From assembly GCA_964427735.1 (NCBI GenBank), contig CAYRUS010000001.1:537373-601372 (forward strand): a stretch of 64,000 bases of DNA, written 5' to 3'. The DNA is from an uncultured Gammaproteobacteria bacterium (GTDB taxonomy: Bacteria; Patescibacteriota; Microgenomatia; UBA8517). Under the pieces are notes generated by a model. It saw only the letters and a list, made by a program, of their open reading frames with translations. It had not been told where the DNA came from and did no database searches. A program made the position numbers and the translations under genes. Below are positions 437 through 54,274 of this stretch, piece by piece (the stretch's first letter is position 1; every line of letters begins with the position of its first letter).

Positions 437-949
437 CTATTTAAAATGAATATAAAGTTTTGCATCTAGAGCCTTAGCTAATTTTTCGAGAAACATTATT
501 GAGGGGTTAGCACGTCCAGACTCGATTCTTGCTATTGCAGATTATTTTGTTCCTGCTTTTTCTGCTTCCATTTTTAAGAGTTTTTCTCTTATCTTATTAG
601 CTTCTTCTATTAGTCGCTCATATTCTTCCCTTTTAGTCTGTGGCAAGCTAGGATTAGGATGTCCACCTAATGTTCTTAATGAATTAATTTCGTTGCGTGT
701 CAGCATGTGGCCTGTTCTTTCTTTTATTAGTTTTATTGTATGATGTAATCTTTGCTGGTAATTTCTTCTGCTGTCCCTTATATAAGGGACACCCCAACTG
801 TTTAATTTGTCAAGGTCAGGGTGTTCCATGTTTTGAATAGCACTATAATCGCCTCTTACGATACTCAATAAAGCTTCCAAGGGCCAATTAGAAAATTCTC
901 TTAAATAGTCCTGGTAATCCTGTTCTCTGAATGCAGAGTTCTCACTCAT
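437..949 (-). pseudogene. XRE-family helix-turn-helix domain protein (C-terminal HTH) interrupted by an in-frame TAA at 542-544
   Basis: ORF-track ORF 542..949 ends at a TAA. The same frame continues to a TAG at 437-439. Codons 539..440 encode SAIARIESGRANPSIMFLEKLAKALDAKLYIHFK. Together with the upstream ...AEKAGTK this reconstitutes helix 2/3 of an XRE HTH (cf. LAEKAGVSQSTISRIERG..NPSLETLLKLAKAL). The stop sits where Gln is usual, so CAA->TAA is the likely change. Confidence 0.5.
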
Positions 950-1152
950 GCCTTATTTTAACTTGAATAAATATAATTTTCCATTAAGTAGTAGTTTTTT
1001 AATATTTGAAGACACTCTTGATAAGACAACTCAAGGGAAAGCAATTTAGGGTTTTGAAAAGTTAGAGGTGTGAAGCTGATTTACCCGACGGATGTGTAAA
1101 TATCTTATACAGACATACAACTTTGGAAAATCAATGGTAGAATACATTAAAT

Positions 1153-1929
1153 ATGTCAGACGAAAAGCCTTCGAAAAACAAATCTACTTTTTCGTGGGAA
1201 GTACAAAGACTAAGATTTACAGCTTTCCCCTTGTCCAATGAAATATCTACCAATGGAGACTTACTGTGGAAAAATATTAAGGAATTCGAACTTGAAAGGA
1301 GAGAAGATAATCCCAAATTGGGAGAGAAAGTGTGGATAGGATCAAAAAAAGAGCAAAAATTAATCCTCAAGGTACATTTAGTAAAAATAGATTTGATCCT
1401 AGAACCAAAAGAACCTATATTAATCTCCCCGCCAGAGCTAAATATGTTGGGGGATCTGGAACCATCTGTTGACACATTTAAAAAAATTATTGATCAATTC
1501 TTAAACAAAAGTGAGTCATTGCCTAACTTAACAAGAATTGCTTTTGGTGCATCATTGTTTAAATCTGTATCTGACCGCGAGGAGGGTTATCAAATTCTTT
1601 CTAAATTATTACCATTTACAATTGATAGTAAAAATACCTATGATTTTAATTTACAGATTAATAAGCCTACAAAGTCGAGTACATTAAATGGGCTTCTTAT
1701 AAACAGACTCACAAAATGGGGAGTTTTGAATGCAAAAGCAGAATTAGTCTCGAGTGCCAACCCAGATAATATTGTCCACTTTTCAGAAAAATGGTTAAAT
1801 CATTTAGAGTTAGATATTAATACAGACAAAGATCATACTGATTCTTTTGATCCAAAAAAAATAAATGATCTATTTCGAGAACTTGTGAATAAGGGTCTCG
1901 ATATTGCAAAAACAGGCTTGCCAAAATAA
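1153..1929 (+). CDS. hypothetical protein, gene 1 of a tightly coupled 3-gene cassette
   Basis: 258-aa ORF. The stop is 2 nt before the next start. No recognisable motif. Divergent from the HTH pseudogene. Confidence 0.55.
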   Translation: MSDEKPSKNKSTFSWEVQRLRFTAFPLSNEISTNGDLLWKNIKEFELERREDNPKLGEKVWIGSKKEQKLILKVHLVKIDLILEPKEPILISPPELNMLGDLEPSVDTFKKIIDQFLNKSESLPNLTRIAFGASLFKSVSDREEGYQILSKLLPFTIDSKNTYDFNLQINKPTKSSTLNGLLINRLTKWGVLNAKAELVSSANPDNIVHFSEKWLNHLELDINTDKDHTDSFDPKKINDLFRELVNKGLDIAKTGLPK

Positions 1930-1931
1930 CA

Positions 1932-2498
1932 ATGGATGGATTACAAACTGCAGCAACTTCAGAAAATTTTGATTTTTCAGATATAATCATAAATTCCCGT
2001 CTTGTTTATGGGCTTTACGAATTCAAAAGTGTGGGGACCGCAACAGATACTCCATTACCTCAAGATCCAAGATTAGATAAAAACTCTACAGAATTAGAGT
2101 TTCAGGGAACTTTAATTCTCTCTAATTTAACATCTGCAGATACATTTGGTGTAAAAGCAGCAGACTTTCTACAGGAATTTATATCAGAGAATGGTAAATT
2201 AGATGATTACAAAGAAGTATTAAGTTTTATTCGCAATAATGAACATTTAATTATTGAAATAAAATATGCTATAAATCAAGTTAAGGCTGAATTATCGAGA
2301 TATGATATAGAATATCAACTTAAGTTAGCAGTCCACACTGACACAGAACAGAGTAGCTTGAAGACGATATTTTTATTAATAGTAGGCGATTTCACGCCAA
2401 AAAAAGCTTTCGCCCTGTTGCAGTCATTGGATGAAAGCCTATCATTAAAGATAAGTGATATTTCTAAATTCAACTTAAACGTAGAGTTTACAGACTGA
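1932..2498 (+). CDS. hypothetical protein, gene 2 of the cassette
   Basis: 188-aa ORF. The stop is 1 nt before the next start, suggesting translational coupling. Confidence 0.55.
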   Translation: MDGLQTAATSENFDFSDIIINSRLVYGLYEFKSVGTATDTPLPQDPRLDKNSTELEFQGTLILSNLTSADTFGVKAADFLQEFISENGKLDDYKEVLSFIRNNEHLIIEIKYAINQVKAELSRYDIEYQLKLAVHTDTEQSSLKTIFLLIVGDFTPKKAFALLQSLDESLSLKISDISKFNLNVEFTD

Positions 2499-2499
2499 C

Positions 2500-2847
2500 A
2501 TGTTTGAATGGAAAGACTATTTAAAATTAGCGAAAGTATTGGCAAGCAGTAAGAAAGAATCTCGATTACGCTCTTCTGTCAGTCGTGCTTACTATGCTGC
2601 TTTTTGCAGTGCTAGAAATCATGCAGGTTCTAACGGATATCAAATTAAAAATACTGCAGCAGATCATTATGGAGTAGAAAAGTTCTACTCAAATCGAGTT
2701 ATATCATATCCCCAAGTGGGAACTAATTTAAGTAGACTTAGAGTTGCCAGAAATATGTGCGATTACGACGAAACTGTTAAAGGACTGTCGTCTAAAACAA
2801 GACTTTCTATAATGCAAGCCGAATCTATATTATCTATAACCACATAA
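2500..2847 (+). CDS. small all-alpha protein, tentatively HEPN-like (gene 3 of the cassette)
   Basis: 115-aa ORF. The segment RSSVSRAYYAAFCSARNHAGSNGY resembles the R...YYA.F / Rx(n)H helical signature of small HEPN families. The assignment is tentative. Confidence 0.4.
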   Translation: MFEWKDYLKLAKVLASSKKESRLRSSVSRAYYAAFCSARNHAGSNGYQIKNTAADHYGVEKFYSNRVISYPQVGTNLSRLRVARNMCDYDETVKGLSSKTRLSIMQAESILSITT

Positions 2848-3020: not shown

Positions 3021-3746
3021 TCATATTATTTCTTTACCGGATGCCCACCAGTCTTCAAACTTTTTTATTACCCCTTCAGTTTTATCCTCCAATCGGTGAA
3101 CCATAAAATCTCTTTTCCCTATGGTGTTGATTGATGCTCCAAGGCTATAAACACTTCTCTTGTCAATAATTATATATCGGTCATGCGATGATTTATCTTC
3201 TTTTGCTTCTACAAGATTATTCTTCTCTCTGAGTGCCAAATAAAGTCTTTTAAAAATTGGTTTCTCGCCATTCGTGATGAGTTTTACTGAAACACTGGTA
3301 GGTATTACATCGAGGAAGTCAAAGACTACTTCATCTAGATAGCCGTCAACAATATAGACACTCTCTATTGCTGCTTTTAGTATGCTAGTTAATAATCGAT
3401 AAGCATCATATTTTTGTGTGGCTGTAAAAGAATACTCGTTCGCAACTATGGAAACGCTGTGGTGTTTACCGCTTATATCTTCAAGTTTTAATACCAATTC
3501 TTGGAGTTTTTGCTTTTCCTTCACACCTGCATAACTTTGAGACGGATATTTAGCATGCCACTGATACCCTCGCTCGTGTTCCCAACGATCTAACAAGCGC
3601 CATTCGTCTGTGTCTTTTTGATATATCTCCTTAGCTTCTCTAATTGAATCAGCAAAAAAATCTTCGGCCTCTTGTCCTTTTATAACACCCTTCTCAATCC
3701 GCGTTACTTGTTCATTAATCTTAGTTATTAGATCTTCAATTCCCAT
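3021..3746 (-). CDS. PLD-family (Nuc/BfiI-like) nuclease, candidate restriction endonuclease
   Basis: 241 aa. HDRYIIIDKRSVYSLGASINT matches the HxK(R)xxxxD x6-7 G(S)xN PLD motif (cf. Nuc HAKVMVIDGETVYTGSANFT). It lies immediately downstream of and overlapping the methyltransferase gene (3746/3748). Confidence 0.5.
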   Translation of the reverse strand: MGIEDLITKINEQVTRIEKGVIKGQEAEDFFADSIREAKEIYQKDTDEWRLLDRWEHERGYQWHAKYPSQSYAGVKEKQKLQELVLKLEDISGKHHSVSIVANEYSFTATQKYDAYRLLTSILKAAIESVYIVDGYLDEVVFDFLDVIPTSVSVKLITNGEKPIFKRLYLALREKNNLVEAKEDKSSHDRYIIIDKRSVYSLGASINTIGKRDFMVHRLEDKTEGVIKKFEDWWASGKEII

Positions 3747-3747
3747 T

Positions 3748-4860
3748 TTACTTTTTGATTTTTTTGTGTCTAATCAATATTCTGCTATATAGTCTTTTGC
3801 CATTTAAATAAGCTCTATCGATTTTCCCCTTCCAATCAGAATTAACAAGTTCTGGAAAAAAGCCTTGTTTTATATCATAATCGCTCCCAATGATTTCGAA
3901 CTGGTTTGGATTGTATTTATTTAGAAATGTTATCGGAACACCCATGACATCATCATAGTCCATTGGGATGTCTGCATATTTTGGAACTTCAATTGCATGG
4001 TAATTGTCGTATTCTGGAAACTCATCAGGTGAATACTTTTTATATAGCGTGAGTTCTTCGTGGCGTTTTGTTGTATCGAGATTGGTATACCACAATATTC
4101 TTCCCATGCTGAAGTATTTGACACCGTCCAGGATTTTTTTCCTAGATTCAGTCGGGATATCGTAATCCATTGGAACCTGAAACCATTTTGTTCCACCATT
4201 GTCGTAACCGAACCATAATTTGTTTCCTTTGATAAACTTAAATATTTCTTTGTAAGTAATGGCGTTTTGGTCACCGAGTATCAGAAATTTTTTGTCATAT
4301 TCGATTAATTGGGCGACGTATTCGCGGAATAAACTAAACGGTGGGTTGGTGACTACAATATCGGCTTGTTTAAGGAGTTCAATGCTTTCCTTACTTCTGA
4401 AGTCTCCATCACCAACTAGTGGAGTCCACTCATTATTTTTGTTTTGCTTAAGCTGCTCTGCAATATCTTTTAAGTCAAAAGCACCATCACCATTAATGTC
4501 TGTTACCTCATTTAAGATAAATTTGTTTGCAGTTGCCTTTGGACGTCCCTTTTGCTTTATAGCTTTTCCATTCCCAAAAAGTTCAAGCTGAGTATTTGCA
4601 ACAGGAGATGGTTTGTAGCTTGTTGTAATTAATTGTTTTAAACCTAATTTGTTGAAATTTAAAGTAAAATACTGAAAAAAGTTACTCTCATATGGATCAT
4701 CACAATTGCAGTAAACTACTTTGCCTTTGAATTGGTCTTTGTAGTGTTTTAGCTCCTTTTCTATGTCTGTAAGTTGAGTATAGAATTCATCCTTTTTTGC
4801 CTTGTTGGCTTTGTGGAGGTTTGAATTAAGAGGCTTTTTACTCATTTTACTGTAAACCAA
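3748..4860 (-). CDS. N6-adenine-specific DNA methyltransferase (EcoRI-methylase family)
   Basis: 370 aa. It carries the N-terminal DEFYTQ motif and the catalytic VVTNPPFS (NPPF) motif typical of EcoRI-like gamma/beta-class adenine MTases. Confidence 0.8.
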   Translation of the reverse strand: MVYSKMSKKPLNSNLHKANKAKKDEFYTQLTDIEKELKHYKDQFKGKVVYCNCDDPYESNFFQYFTLNFNKLGLKQLITTSYKPSPVANTQLELFGNGKAIKQKGRPKATANKFILNEVTDINGDGAFDLKDIAEQLKQNKNNEWTPLVGDGDFRSKESIELLKQADIVVTNPPFSLFREYVAQLIEYDKKFLILGDQNAITYKEIFKFIKGNKLWFGYDNGGTKWFQVPMDYDIPTESRKKILDGVKYFSMGRILWYTNLDTTKRHEELTLYKKYSPDEFPEYDNYHAIEVPKYADIPMDYDDVMGVPITFLNKYNPNQFEIIGSDYDIKQGFFPELVNSDWKGKIDRAYLNGKRLYSRILIRHKKIKK

Positions 4861-53902: not shown

Positions 53903-54274
53903 GGGGACGCATTAGGTTTCGACGAGATGGCTCTTTTAAAGATTGCAAGCAGACGGATGTCAGTATACGTCTTTAATCACACTGGCAAACACAAAAAGCG
54001 TCACTAAAAATAGCGCTCCTAAATACGCTGTAGCTTACGCGTAAAAAGGTGTCTTGTTGATTACGTTTTCCGACCGAATCATCAGGGCATAAACCTAGTC
54101 GGAACGCACACAAGTCTTGGTGAGCTTTGCAAGCTTGTGCTAAGAATTTTAAAGCTTGTCTTTTCTCGTCCTTCCGATGGGTAAGAGTAAAGCACTACAA
54201 AATATCGGATAAGCTTGTAGAAATCTTTATTGAGAAAATTTCGGACGAGGGTTCGACTCCCTCCGTCTCCACCA
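53903..54274 (+). ncRNA. ssrA: tmRNA (ssrA), standard one-piece
   Basis: It starts GGGGACGCATTAGGTTTCGACG and ends ...GGACGAGGGTTCGACTCCCTCCGTCTCCACCA (tRNA-Ala-like acceptor/T-arm with encoded CCA). The candidate tag reading frame is GCA AAC ACA AAA AGC GTC ACT AAA AAT AGC GCT CCT AAA TAC GCT GTA GCT TAC GCG TAA, giving (A)NTKSVTKNSAPKYAVAYA*. Boundaries are +/- 2 nt. Confidence 0.85.

Follow-up and report, generated by a model that had tools for sequence, protein, structure and literature searches.

A mobile three-gene cassette ending in a variant HEPN protein is a candidate toxin or anti-phage module

Introduction

What might three tightly coupled genes of an uncultured bacterium, lying close to a DNA methyltransferase gene, be doing? 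The genes sit within a 64,000-nucleotide stretch of DNA (the window), and an initial annotation made from its letters had proposed that they form a translationally coupled operon and plausibly an uncharacterised anti-phage or toxin system. We analysed each gene, its relatives and the company that those relatives keep.

Results

A mobile three-gene operon

The open reading frames bear out a translationally coupled operon of three genes on the plus strand, with gaps of 2 nt (CA) between g1 and g2 and 1 nt (C) between g2 and g3. The first gene, g1 (1153..1929; 258 aa), belongs to a large unannotated family, g1fam (hereafter the g1 family); g2 (1932..2498; 188 aa) joins a variable N-terminal half to a conserved C-terminal domain at about residues 73-185; and g3 (2500..2847; 115 aa) encodes a HEPN-T (AF0298/UPF0332-like) domain. 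A trio of 257, 188 and 114 aa with intact frames is present on five metagenome contigs (L001-L005) at about 67% nucleotide identity to the window, and the corresponding protein identities are about 64-66% for g1, 49% for g2 and 62.5% for g3. For g2 and g3, dN/dS lies at about 0.14-0.18; for g1, dS is saturated and dN is 0.23. By these sequence comparisons, the cassette genes are real and under purifying selection. The likeness to the metagenome contigs ends at the cassette borders (window positions ~1143-2871), beyond which the flanks are unrelated. The same trio in unrelated flanks argues that the cassette is mobile and has been transferred as a unit, and on this comparative evidence we regard the operon as both genuine and mobile.

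Upstream of g1 is a divergent intergenic region of 203 bp (950..1152, unstranded), which presumably holds the promoter and 5' UTR. A promoter scan of its plus strand (950-1152) found no promoter-like site, the count over the scanned region equalling the shuffle expectation; its inverted repeats are only imperfect (for example 1052-1072 with 1110-1130, at 71%) and not above chance, and an Rfam search of 950-1152 gave no match. The divergent, decayed XRE-HTH gene that had been proposed beyond it is indeed there (437..949, minus strand), interrupted by one TAA codon at 542-544 that leaves a 135-aa ORF and 34 in-frame codons (read-through translation ...AEKAGTK*SAIARIESGRANPSIMFLEKLAKALDAKL). Over 37 aa, its C-terminal HTH shares 57% identity with an XRE HTH consensus; neither Pfam nor PDB gave a match for the intact 135-aa part, and the interrupted gene is possibly a former regulator. 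Convergent with the cassette on its other side, a minus-strand gene (3021..3746) encodes a 241-aa PLD-like protein (PADLOC candidate PDC-S05, E 3.8e-26; PLDc_2, E 0.009) with the motif HDR...D...GASIN, and 1 nt upstream of it lies the gene for an EcoRI-type adenine DNA methyltransferase (3748..4860, minus strand; PF13651, E 1.5e-137; PADLOC MTase_II, E 6.2e-124). Of the Type II restriction-modification (R-M) pair first read at this position, the EcoRI-type methylase stands, but its partner is the PLD-like, PDC-S05-matching protein and not an EcoRI-like endonuclease.

g3 is a HEPN protein with a variant site

Against the Pfam HEPN profile (PF05168), g3 scores 14.4 bits (E 0.043), under the 22-bit gathering threshold, with residues 6-111 covering profile positions 10-111 of 117; it also matches phrog_5176 (E 1.3e-10). 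A family profile built from 18 homologues matches PDB entry 9xbd, a "HEPN domain-containing protein" (E 1.1e-7), in an alignment that pairs the SRAYYA and RNxxDYD motifs of the two, and matches AF0298/UPF0332 weakly (E 0.63); a literature search on 9XBD returned nothing relevant. Homologues of g3 carry the labels HEPN or UPF0332, given by NCBI and JGI. Both the 9xbd match and these names uphold the earlier description of g3 as HEPN-like, and by homology g3 is a HEPN protein of the HEPN-T clade. No PADLOC model matches g1 or g2 at E<=1, and the PDC-M05B match of g3 is weak (E 0.0021, 16.3 bits), covering residues 27-99 only.

The canonical Rx4-6H histidine is absent from g3, which carries R84-N85-x-x-D88-Y89 and an upstream H56, invariant across the 18 homologues. 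In the AF0298-type variant of the HEPN domain, the arginine is kept, the histidine is replaced by aspartate and a second conserved histidine lies N-terminal to it, a set proposed to be catalytic (PMC3710099). g3 is predicted to carry this documented variant site, with R84, N85, D88, Y89 and H56 as the catalytic set. The initial annotation had noticed the segment R...AYYAAF...RNH, which is present at residues 24-41, but its RNH (residues 39-41) is not the catalytic site, and the statement that none of the three proteins has a recognisable catalytic motif is wrong for g3, given its AF0298-type R84, D88, Y89 and H56. RNase activity of g3 is an extrapolation, since the Pfam score is sub-threshold and the canonical Rx4-6H histidine is missing.

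g2 is the probable antitoxin

The g2 protein is 49% identical to its homologue on L001 (E 2.6e-50). A g2 HMM, built only from the g2 proteins of the sister operons described below, matches Thermus g2 at E 4e-41, a 118-aa Gloeothece protein at E 1.6e-15, L001 g2 at E 1.3e-8 and window g2 weakly, at E 4e-4 (11 bits, residues 73-165). Window g2 is thus placed in the family by transitivity via L001, its own match being weak; so placed, it belongs to an unannotated family whose C-terminal domain of ~100 aa is always encoded just ahead of this HEPN subfamily. No nucleotidyltransferase or other family was matched by g2 in Pfam or PADLOC (PADLOC-DB 2.0, none at E<=1), a PDB sequence search found no match, and the g2 proteins of L001 and L007 gave only chance-level PADLOC matches (E 0.006-0.01). 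The family consensus lacks the G[GS] motif of the minimal nucleotidyltransferase signature (hG[GS]...D-x-[DE]). The N-terminal extension is variable and probably disordered, and a single-sequence AF2 model of g2 (pLDDT 39) was unusable. A conserved W-P docking motif in the extension was considered and dropped, as it occurs in only 15 of 61 sequences and start sites are noisy.

The C-terminal domain also occurs without the extension. On a Gloeothece conjugative plasmid, it forms a two-gene pair with a HEPN gene, overlapping by 4 nt, and in Phormidium the two genes of such a pair abut and have AbiEi/AbiEii as neighbours. Overlapping or abutting two-gene pairs are the classic antitoxin-toxin layout, and because the g2 C-terminal domain and HEPN stand alone in such loci, g2 is probably the cognate neutraliser, or antitoxin, of the HEPN protein. 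The Gloeothece pair adjoins the replication gene region of its plasmid.

g1 belongs to a large unannotated family

The g1 family comprises 3,210 clusters. No match to g1 was found in Pfam, NCBIfam, PADLOC (PADLOC-DB 2.0, none at E<=1) or PHROG, and homology to any protein of known function was not detected. A confident AF2 model predicts two tandem beta-alpha-beta(3-4)-alpha repeats, and the family has an invariant polar patch of R21, R128, N170, N184 and D221. The model has no close PDB relative: Foldseek against PDB and BFVD returned TBP-like and AdoMetDC-like folds at low TM (~0.3), and the matches as a whole are weak and heterogeneous (AdoMetDC, TBP, Med20). With TM scores of only ~0.3, we assign g1 to no fold family. 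The family was not found by tblastn in 72,556 plasmids and 50,697 phage records, or in a scan of IMG/VR contigs, suggesting that it is not obviously plasmid- or phage-borne.

Other cassettes headed by the g1 family have different partners: some encode a conserved 160-220-aa protein, either with a HEAT-repeat protein or by itself, and others a set with a PIN-like domain; PDB sequence searches with g1 and with the 160-220-aa partner found no match. Partner swapping is typical of conflict systems. Solely from its operon position and its conservation pattern, we infer that g1 may be a sensor or regulator.

Sister operons share g2 and HEPN with the window

Sister operons have a TIGR04255-family protein in the first slot, followed by g2 and HEPN. 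This order, with genes overlapping or abutting, was found in all 56 metagenome loci that were long enough to show it, and five of seven HEPN homologues looked up sit in trios of ~250 aa, ~160-190 aa and HEPN; the two exceptions are a two-gene locus (L016) and an Asn-synthase-like gene followed by HEPN (L112). The three genes therefore do co-occur elsewhere: the full trio is on L001-L005, and in every cassette examined, those 56 loci included, g2 and HEPN come after a first gene of ~250 aa. Like the window cassette, the TIGR04255 operons are tightly coupled, with genes of the same sizes (~247/187/120 aa) in the same order; their g2 family and HEPN subfamily are also those of the window cassette (HEPN 36-44% identical to g3), but they differ from it in the first gene. 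Their hosts include both bacteria and archaea, and their surroundings are often defence-related.

The TIGR04255.1 model, for which membership requires at least 30 bits, gives scores of 139 and 133 bits to the first genes of two sister cassettes (L017 and L018), whereas it matched neither window g1 (no hit at E<=1) nor any of 45 g1-family members. Profile-profile alignment of the g1 family with TIGR04255 by hhalign gave P 0.72 (45 against 5 sequences) and P 0.38 (153 against 89), and hmmsearch cross-searches in both directions gave a best E of 1.3-2.1. With model, hhalign and hmmsearch all negative, homology of the two families was rejected at the sequence level. They do share an operon slot and size, each being a first gene of ~250 aa followed by g2 and HEPN. 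A low-stringency alignment of the two families is colinear and not significant, pairing the N-terminal strand, RIAFGA with RIGLRYIN, ELDINTD with LDLDY, and the C-terminal helix. A sequence search of PDB found no TIGR04255 structure, and no mention of TIGR04255 was found in the searchable literature; to our knowledge, the family has been curated by NCBI and studied by nobody. A Crinalium plasmid triad was considered as a two-by-two swap (TIGR04255 followed by HEAT-like and g3B-like genes) and rejected, the scores of its partners being too weak (hmmsearch E 0.003 and 0.094; hhalign P 0.0086 and 0.051).

Sister cassettes neighbour Type I/IIG R-M genes, PglZ with SNF2, Mrr_N/PIN/ResIII and AbiE, and on a Thermus plasmid the neighbours are VapBC, Cas6 and a methylase. 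In a Pfam tally of 100 neighbours, made without a matched control, ResIII (8) and N6_N4_Mtase (7) were commonest. Genes for a DPPY methylase and a Walker A/DExH protein enclose the triad at three loci (L043, L058 and L102), all on one strand, in a Type III-like arrangement. Many sister triads have no R-M neighbour, and one cassette (L024) sits among housekeeping genes (purine, isocitrate dehydrogenase). The association with defence islands anticipated by the initial annotation is borne out by sister cassettes beside or inside R-M, BREX-like, Abi and TA genes, and homology to a housekeeping pathway was found for none of the cassette proteins. Because the sister operons are often beside or inside R-M loci, the cassette is a good candidate for a new toxin or anti-phage module.

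Discussion

We favour, at a probability of roughly 0.55, the reading that the cassette is a mobile, tripartite, toxin-antitoxin-like abortive-infection or defence module composed of an RNase toxin, a neutraliser and a sensor or regulator. In such a module, g3 would be the growth-arresting effector, a small HEPN-T ribonuclease acting through an alternative site (Arg84 of RNxxDY with His56). The conserved C-terminal domain of g2 would bind the HEPN protein and keep it inactive, the fast-evolving N-terminal half of g2 would connect it to g1, and g1, with its invariant polar patch, would decide when g2 releases the toxin. Toxicity, the neutralisation pairing, the role of g1 and any phage trigger are elements that we infer.

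Among the effectors of prokaryotic immunity and toxin-antitoxin biology, HEPN toxins form a main class, and the small HEPN-T proteins known to us are controlled by nucleotidyltransferases. Close points of comparison are the MNT-HEPN systems (HepT/MntA-type, type VII) and the PADLOC candidate PDC-M05, which consists of a nucleotidyltransferase and a HEPN protein (PMC12988326). Like them, the window cassette ends in a small HEPN-T-clade protein within a tight operon, and both kinds of system are frequent in defence islands. Unlike them, it has three genes and not two, its HEPN protein carries RNxxDY and a separate His in place of RX4HXY, and it has no nucleotidyltransferase: g1, g2 and their homologues gave no match to NTP_transf_2/PF01909, PF18765, Polbeta or PDC-M05A at E<=1. 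By analogy, the varied toxin-type partners (HEPN, PIN-like and the 160-220-aa protein) of one conserved component, the g1 family and in parallel TIGR04255, may be likened to the networks of PanA (Panacea), reportedly a hyperpromiscuous, partner-swapping toxin-antitoxin component. Three genes would likewise recall TAC systems, but g1 is unrelated in sequence to both PanA and SecB, and it is the first gene, too large and too conserved for a simple antitoxin.

TAC systems raise an alternative, in that their SecB-like chaperones act on the antitoxin: the cassette could be a plain addiction or stabilisation system for a genomic islet or mobile element, with no dedicated anti-phage role and with g1 in an accessory part, stabilising or chaperoning the antitoxin. 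We consider this unlikely. The mobility of the cassette, the place of the two-gene pair on a conjugative plasmid, adjoining its replication gene region, and a variable, probably disordered g2 extension that a chaperone could hold would all suit it, but the invariant R, R, N, N and D of g1 fit a ligand or catalytic site better than a chaperone, g1 has no SecB-like similarity, its family is missing from the plasmid and phage collections searched, and several sister triads are embedded in R-M operons. Alternatively, g1 might be an enzyme. By the example of type VII MNT-HEPN systems, whose nucleotidyltransferase AMPylates a tyrosine beside the HEPN motif, g1 could covalently modify HEPN or g2, with the invariant Y89 of RNxxDY as acceptor. 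We think this improbable, as neither g1 nor g2 showed an MNT-like signature, we identified no nucleotide-binding motif, the fold matches of g1 are weak and mixed (AdoMetDC, TBP and Med20 too), and the need for g2 would be left unexplained.

The neighbouring methylase brings to mind PrrC/EcoprrI and other latent RNases embedded in R-M loci, which like the sister triads place an RNase-type effector in or beside R-M genes (PMC3710099). The cassette would on that model be a back-up arm, a latent RNase restrained by the R-M proteins and freed when a phage disables restriction, and the three one-strand triads between mod-like and res-like genes (L043, L058, L102), the clustering of HEPN-T with R-M operons (PMC3710099) and the adjoining methylase and PLD pair in the window are all compatible with it. 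We nevertheless give it little credence, because the window cassette runs towards the methylase pair and is no part of its operon, L001-L005 have the same cassette without that pair, and many sister triads lack any R-M neighbour; unlike PrrC, moreover, the cassette has no ABC-ATPase fusion and forms a separate, convergent operon, and we found no sign that R-M proteins regulate it. Very improbable, finally, is a role outside conflict, with an inert RNA- or ligand-binding HEPN domain and the three proteins forming a housekeeping or regulatory complex. The missing canonical Rx4-6H histidine, the small genome from which the window comes (a 759,860-bp contig) and the one sister cassette among purine and isocitrate dehydrogenase genes would agree with such a role; the sporadic, mobile distribution with unrelated flanks, the PIN domain among swapped partners, the conserved alternative His/Arg set of g3 and neighbours that are mostly defence or toxin-antitoxin genes speak against it.

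Beyond the tripartite defence module that we favour for the window, a broader conjecture, which we hold to be less likely than not, is that the g1 family and TIGR04255 are two versions, analogous or too diverged to align, of one unrecognised modular class of prokaryotic conflict systems. A ~250-aa, two-repeat alpha/beta "switch" with an invariant polar pocket would head a three-gene operon and control interchangeable adaptor and effector pairs (g2 with HEPN, HEAT with the 160-220-aa protein, or PIN sets), and the window cassette would be a hybrid that links the two families.

The HEPN-T protein here is partnered by two proteins from families without a described function, whose controlling role we put forward as a proposal, in an operon shared by uncultured bacteria with small genomes, Methanothrix, Thermus and cyanobacteria, several copies lying inside R-M operons. 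Comparing the two-gene form (g2 C-terminal domain and HEPN) with the three-gene form is a natural experiment on the contribution of the additional component. If the proposal is true, it would give a first function to TIGR04255 and to the unannotated g1 family of more than 3,000 clusters, supply detection tools with a rule (first gene, g2 and HEPN), and reveal a new control logic for HEPN RNases.

A mobile three-gene cassette ending in a variant HEPN protein

Three forward-strand genes, g1 (1153-1929, 258 aa), g2 (1932-2498, 188 aa) and g3 (2500-2847, 115 aa), are separated by gaps of 2 nt and 1 nt in both the ORF listing and the raw sequence, as the initial annotation had described. The nearest g1 homologue (P0002; 64-66% identity, varying with the alignment used) is present on five independent metagenome contigs, each of which bears an equivalent 257/188/114-aa trio, so the synteny for which the initial annotation proposed a search does recur elsewhere. 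Relative to these counterparts, g2 is 49% and g3 62.5% identical, and the cassette as a whole retains 67% nucleotide identity with every frame intact; dN/dS is ~0.14-0.18 for g2 and g3 (for g1, dN is 0.23 and dS is saturated). The conserved trio, intact frames and substitution rates show that g1, g2 and g3 are not chance ORFs. Similarity is limited to ~1143-2871 and the flanks are unrelated; the three genes therefore move as a single unit.

As a single sequence, g3 covers the whole Pfam HEPN domain, albeit sub-threshold (E 0.043), and matches PADLOC PDC-M05B (E 0.002, also sub-threshold) and PHROG 5176, a family of unknown function (E 1.3e-10). A search of 5.8 billion proteins returned 21 homologues, some named at source as 'HEPN domain-containing protein' or 'UPF0332 family'. 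Built from 18 of these sequences, a profile matched the solved 'HEPN domain-containing protein' 9xbd (E 1.1e-7), aligning SRAYYA and RNxxDYD, and gave weak matches to a retron HEPN and AF0298 (UPF0332). Homologue names and the 9xbd match thus bear out the earlier description of g3 as HEPN-like; the catalytic motif predicted here is a different one from the 'RNH' then pointed out (residues 39-41). All family invariants (R24, S28, R29, Y31, Y32, N40, H56, R84, D88 and Y89) are intact in the window protein, and the histidine of the canonical Rx4-6H motif is replaced by Asp throughout the family. The AF0298-type HEPN-T family likewise retains the Arg and carries Asp for this His, and a further His, highly conserved and on the N-terminal side of the motif, has been put forward as the residue that completes an alternative RNase site there (Anantharaman et al., PMC3710099). 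The predicted active site of g3 is, judged by its residues, this AF0298-type variant.

A g2-HEPN core headed by TIGR04255 proteins

A word-indexed search returned no g2 homologue apart from window g2 itself, and we turned to the neighbours of HEPN homologues. Five of the seven with fetched contigs lie in a three-gene operon (~245-265 aa, ~157-189 aa, HEPN); the other two are a two-gene Phormidium pair and an Asn-synthase-like arrangement (L112). The latter encodes P0008, the closest non-cassette g3 homologue (44% identical), which has no g2; its gene shares 4 nt with the end of a 573-aa glutamine-amidotransferase/Asn-synthase-like gene (L112:550-2645), whose product could be an alternative partner, of adenylating type, for g3's HEPN subfamily.

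The middle proteins of the sister trios align to window g2 through a conserved C-terminal domain of ~100 aa (consensus ...EV..YL...P.LI......QL.LEVY.DPE....L.LY.R......L...F.), and the N-terminal halves are unalignable. An HMM made solely from middle genes of other cassettes recovered window g2 (E 4e-4), the g2 of locus L001 (E 1.3e-8), a Thermus plasmid homologue (E 4e-41) and a 118-aa Gloeothece protein (E 1.6e-15). The g2 C-terminal domain makes up the whole of the Gloeothece protein, whose gene, on a conjugative plasmid, overlaps a HEPN gene by 4 nt; in Phormidium, a similar 123-aa and HEPN pair abuts with one base in common, beside AbiEi/AbiEii. Because this two-gene form is laid out as an antitoxin-toxin pair, the g2 C-domain is a putative neutraliser.

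The first gene of the sister cassettes belongs to the TIGR04255 family (NCBIfam E 2.7e-40 and 1.1e-38), a label that PGAP also gives on Thermus, Crinalium and Rhizobium plasmids. Scanning metagenomes with a TIGR04255 profile gave >385 relatives; 80 loci were kept, 56 of them with 1 kb or more of downstream sequence, and every one of these 56 has TIGR04255, g2 and HEPN in that order on one strand (commonest spacings -17, 0, +1 and -4 nt, and -11 and +6 nt).

Divergent TIGR04255 proteins also head three-gene sets with partners other than g2 and HEPN. On an IMG/VR viral contig (L026:4971-8014), a 272-aa member precedes 169-aa and 141-aa genes, immediately upstream of a 408-aa gene that we take to be portal-like, so phages, too, may encode trios headed by TIGR04255. 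On a Rhizobium sp. CB3060 plasmid (L114:1159-6141), a trio of TIGR04255, 288-aa and 218-aa genes directly adjoins a multiubiquitin/ThiF adenylyltransferase/DUF6527 gene set and an IS110 transposase, and another plasmid-borne divergent set lies beside an HNH/methylase region.

The g1 family exchanges partners

Window g1 has the slot and size of the TIGR04255 first gene. Membership in that family is ruled out by sequence: window g1 has no NCBIfam match at E<=1, and the g1 family does not match TIGR04255 by hhalign (P 0.72 and 0.38) or HMM cross-searches (E >1). A permissive alignment of the two is colinear, not significant, and can serve as a lead only. A g1 profile of five sequences retrieved 3,210 clusters, made at 50% identity, with E<=1e-3; 1,272 of them reach E<=1e-30, and every one is a single-domain protein of ~245-265 aa. 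None of 45 sampled members matched Pfam or NCBIfam, and the few named ones are 'hypothetical protein'. Invariant residues are W15, R21, F25, R128, A130, N170, N184, W189 and D221. The confident AF2 model of g1 (pLDDT 84, pTM 0.84) has two tandem beta-alpha-beta(3-4)-alpha repeats; the invariant polar residues fall along predicted strands at a spacing that would put them on the same side (128/130, 219/221/223), which suggests a putative pocket on a sheet face.

Elsewhere the HEPN gene is replaced as g1-family partner by a conserved protein of 160-220 aa (L006-L008, L010, L013-L015). At L006-L008 and L010, the g1-family gene is accompanied by a HEAT-repeat protein (PF13646, E ~1e-5) and a 160-185-aa form; at L012 only the g1-family and HEAT genes are visible before the contig ends; and in Smithella, Pirellulales and Syntrophaceae a longer form is the sole partner. 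Its invariants are R6, W13, S39, Y68, G88-x-T90 and H99. Scans against Pfam (covering four of the seven members), PADLOC and NCBIfam gave no match, nor did its seven-sequence profile against PDB sequences. In Acidithiobacillus (L011:5962-8091, L009), the g1-family gene is followed by overlapping 146-aa, 153-aa PIN-like (PF01850 E 2.6e-4, just below cut-off) and 152-aa genes, which makes this a variant of four genes whose RNase-type domain is of another kind. A weakly supported, possible triad of TIGR04255, HEAT-like and g3B-like genes on a Crinalium plasmid would, if true, complete a 2x2 swap.

Defence-type neighbourhoods

The window cassette is convergent with an EcoRI-type methylase and its 241-aa partner (3021-3746, reverse strand). 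Of the Type II R-M pair initially annotated here, the methylase stands; an EcoRI-like nuclease is ruled out for the partner, a PLD-like PDC-S05 candidate (PADLOC E 3.8e-26; PLDc_2 E 0.009). Its motif, SHDRYIIIDKRSVYSLGASIN, bears Arg where PLD nucleases usually carry Lys. The divergent XRE-type HTH gene (437-949, reverse strand), first noted as decayed, is interrupted: a 135-aa ORF (542-949) runs up to a single TAA codon that cuts the C-terminal HTH, beyond which 34 in-frame codons (440-541) encode helix 3 and the tail (SAIARIESGRANPSIMFLEKLAKAL). Such HTHs usually carry Gln at the position of the stop, which makes one CAA>TAA substitution likely; the options here are a recent pseudogene, a regulator that has been truncated, or an error in sequencing. 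groESL lies ~2.3-4.3 kb upstream of g1, outside the window start. Far downstream are a tmRNA gene (53903-54274; tag peptide VTKNSAPKYAVAYA) and, up to 58042, five tRNA genes (four tRNA-Ser with different anticodons and one tRNA-Arg).

Sister cassettes adjoin a Type I/IIG R-M system; PglZ and SNF2; Mrr_N, a PIN TA pair and ResIII; a large AAA/WD40 (STAND-like) protein; or a DNA methylase, a CopG/VapC toxin-antitoxin pair and Cas6. A Pfam tally of 100 genes neighbouring 23 triads, with no matched control, was led by ResIII (8) and N6_N4_Mtase (7), followed by NTP_transf_2, DUF499, Polbeta, SNF2, Eco57I and HEPN_Swt1. Loci L043, L058 and L102 have a DPPY methylase of ~950-990 aa on one side of the triad and a Walker A/DExH protein of ~930 aa on the other, all on the same strand, so that the triad is in effect embedded in a Type III-like R-M operon. 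At L042 the downstream gene is seemingly split.

A putative tripartite module

Of the readings considered, a tripartite TA-like module for abortive infection, with predicted roles, has the best support. What is shown is the HEPN identity of g3 with its variant site intact, the strict gene order, the two-gene core, the exchange of partners, mobility and the defence-type surroundings. The HEPN RNase g3 would be the effector and presumably toxic, the g2 C-domain would bind and neutralise it, and g1 would be a sensor/regulator working through the variable N-terminal half of g2, in response to a signal that might be linked to phage. Rival readings assign these parts otherwise. The cassette could be a pure addiction module in which g1 is a chaperone, or g1 could be a modifying enzyme, following type VII-like logic without an MNT. 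It could also be a PrrC-like back-up to R-M, or have a non-conflict role; one sister cassette lies among housekeeping genes.

As an abortive-infection module, the cassette would act in a way similar to HEPN toxin modules such as MNT-HEPN. The defining feature of MNT-HEPN is a nucleotidyltransferase, and none was found in g1 or g2 by any scan (Pfam and PADLOC among them), so the cassette falls outside that class. Its closest relatives, the TIGR04255-g2-HEPN operons, appear undescribed, since we found no mention of TIGR04255 in the literature searched. PADLOC 2.0 has no model for g1, g2 or the TIGR04255 first genes of the sister cassettes. The cassette connects two unstudied families to a testable mechanism of HEPN control.
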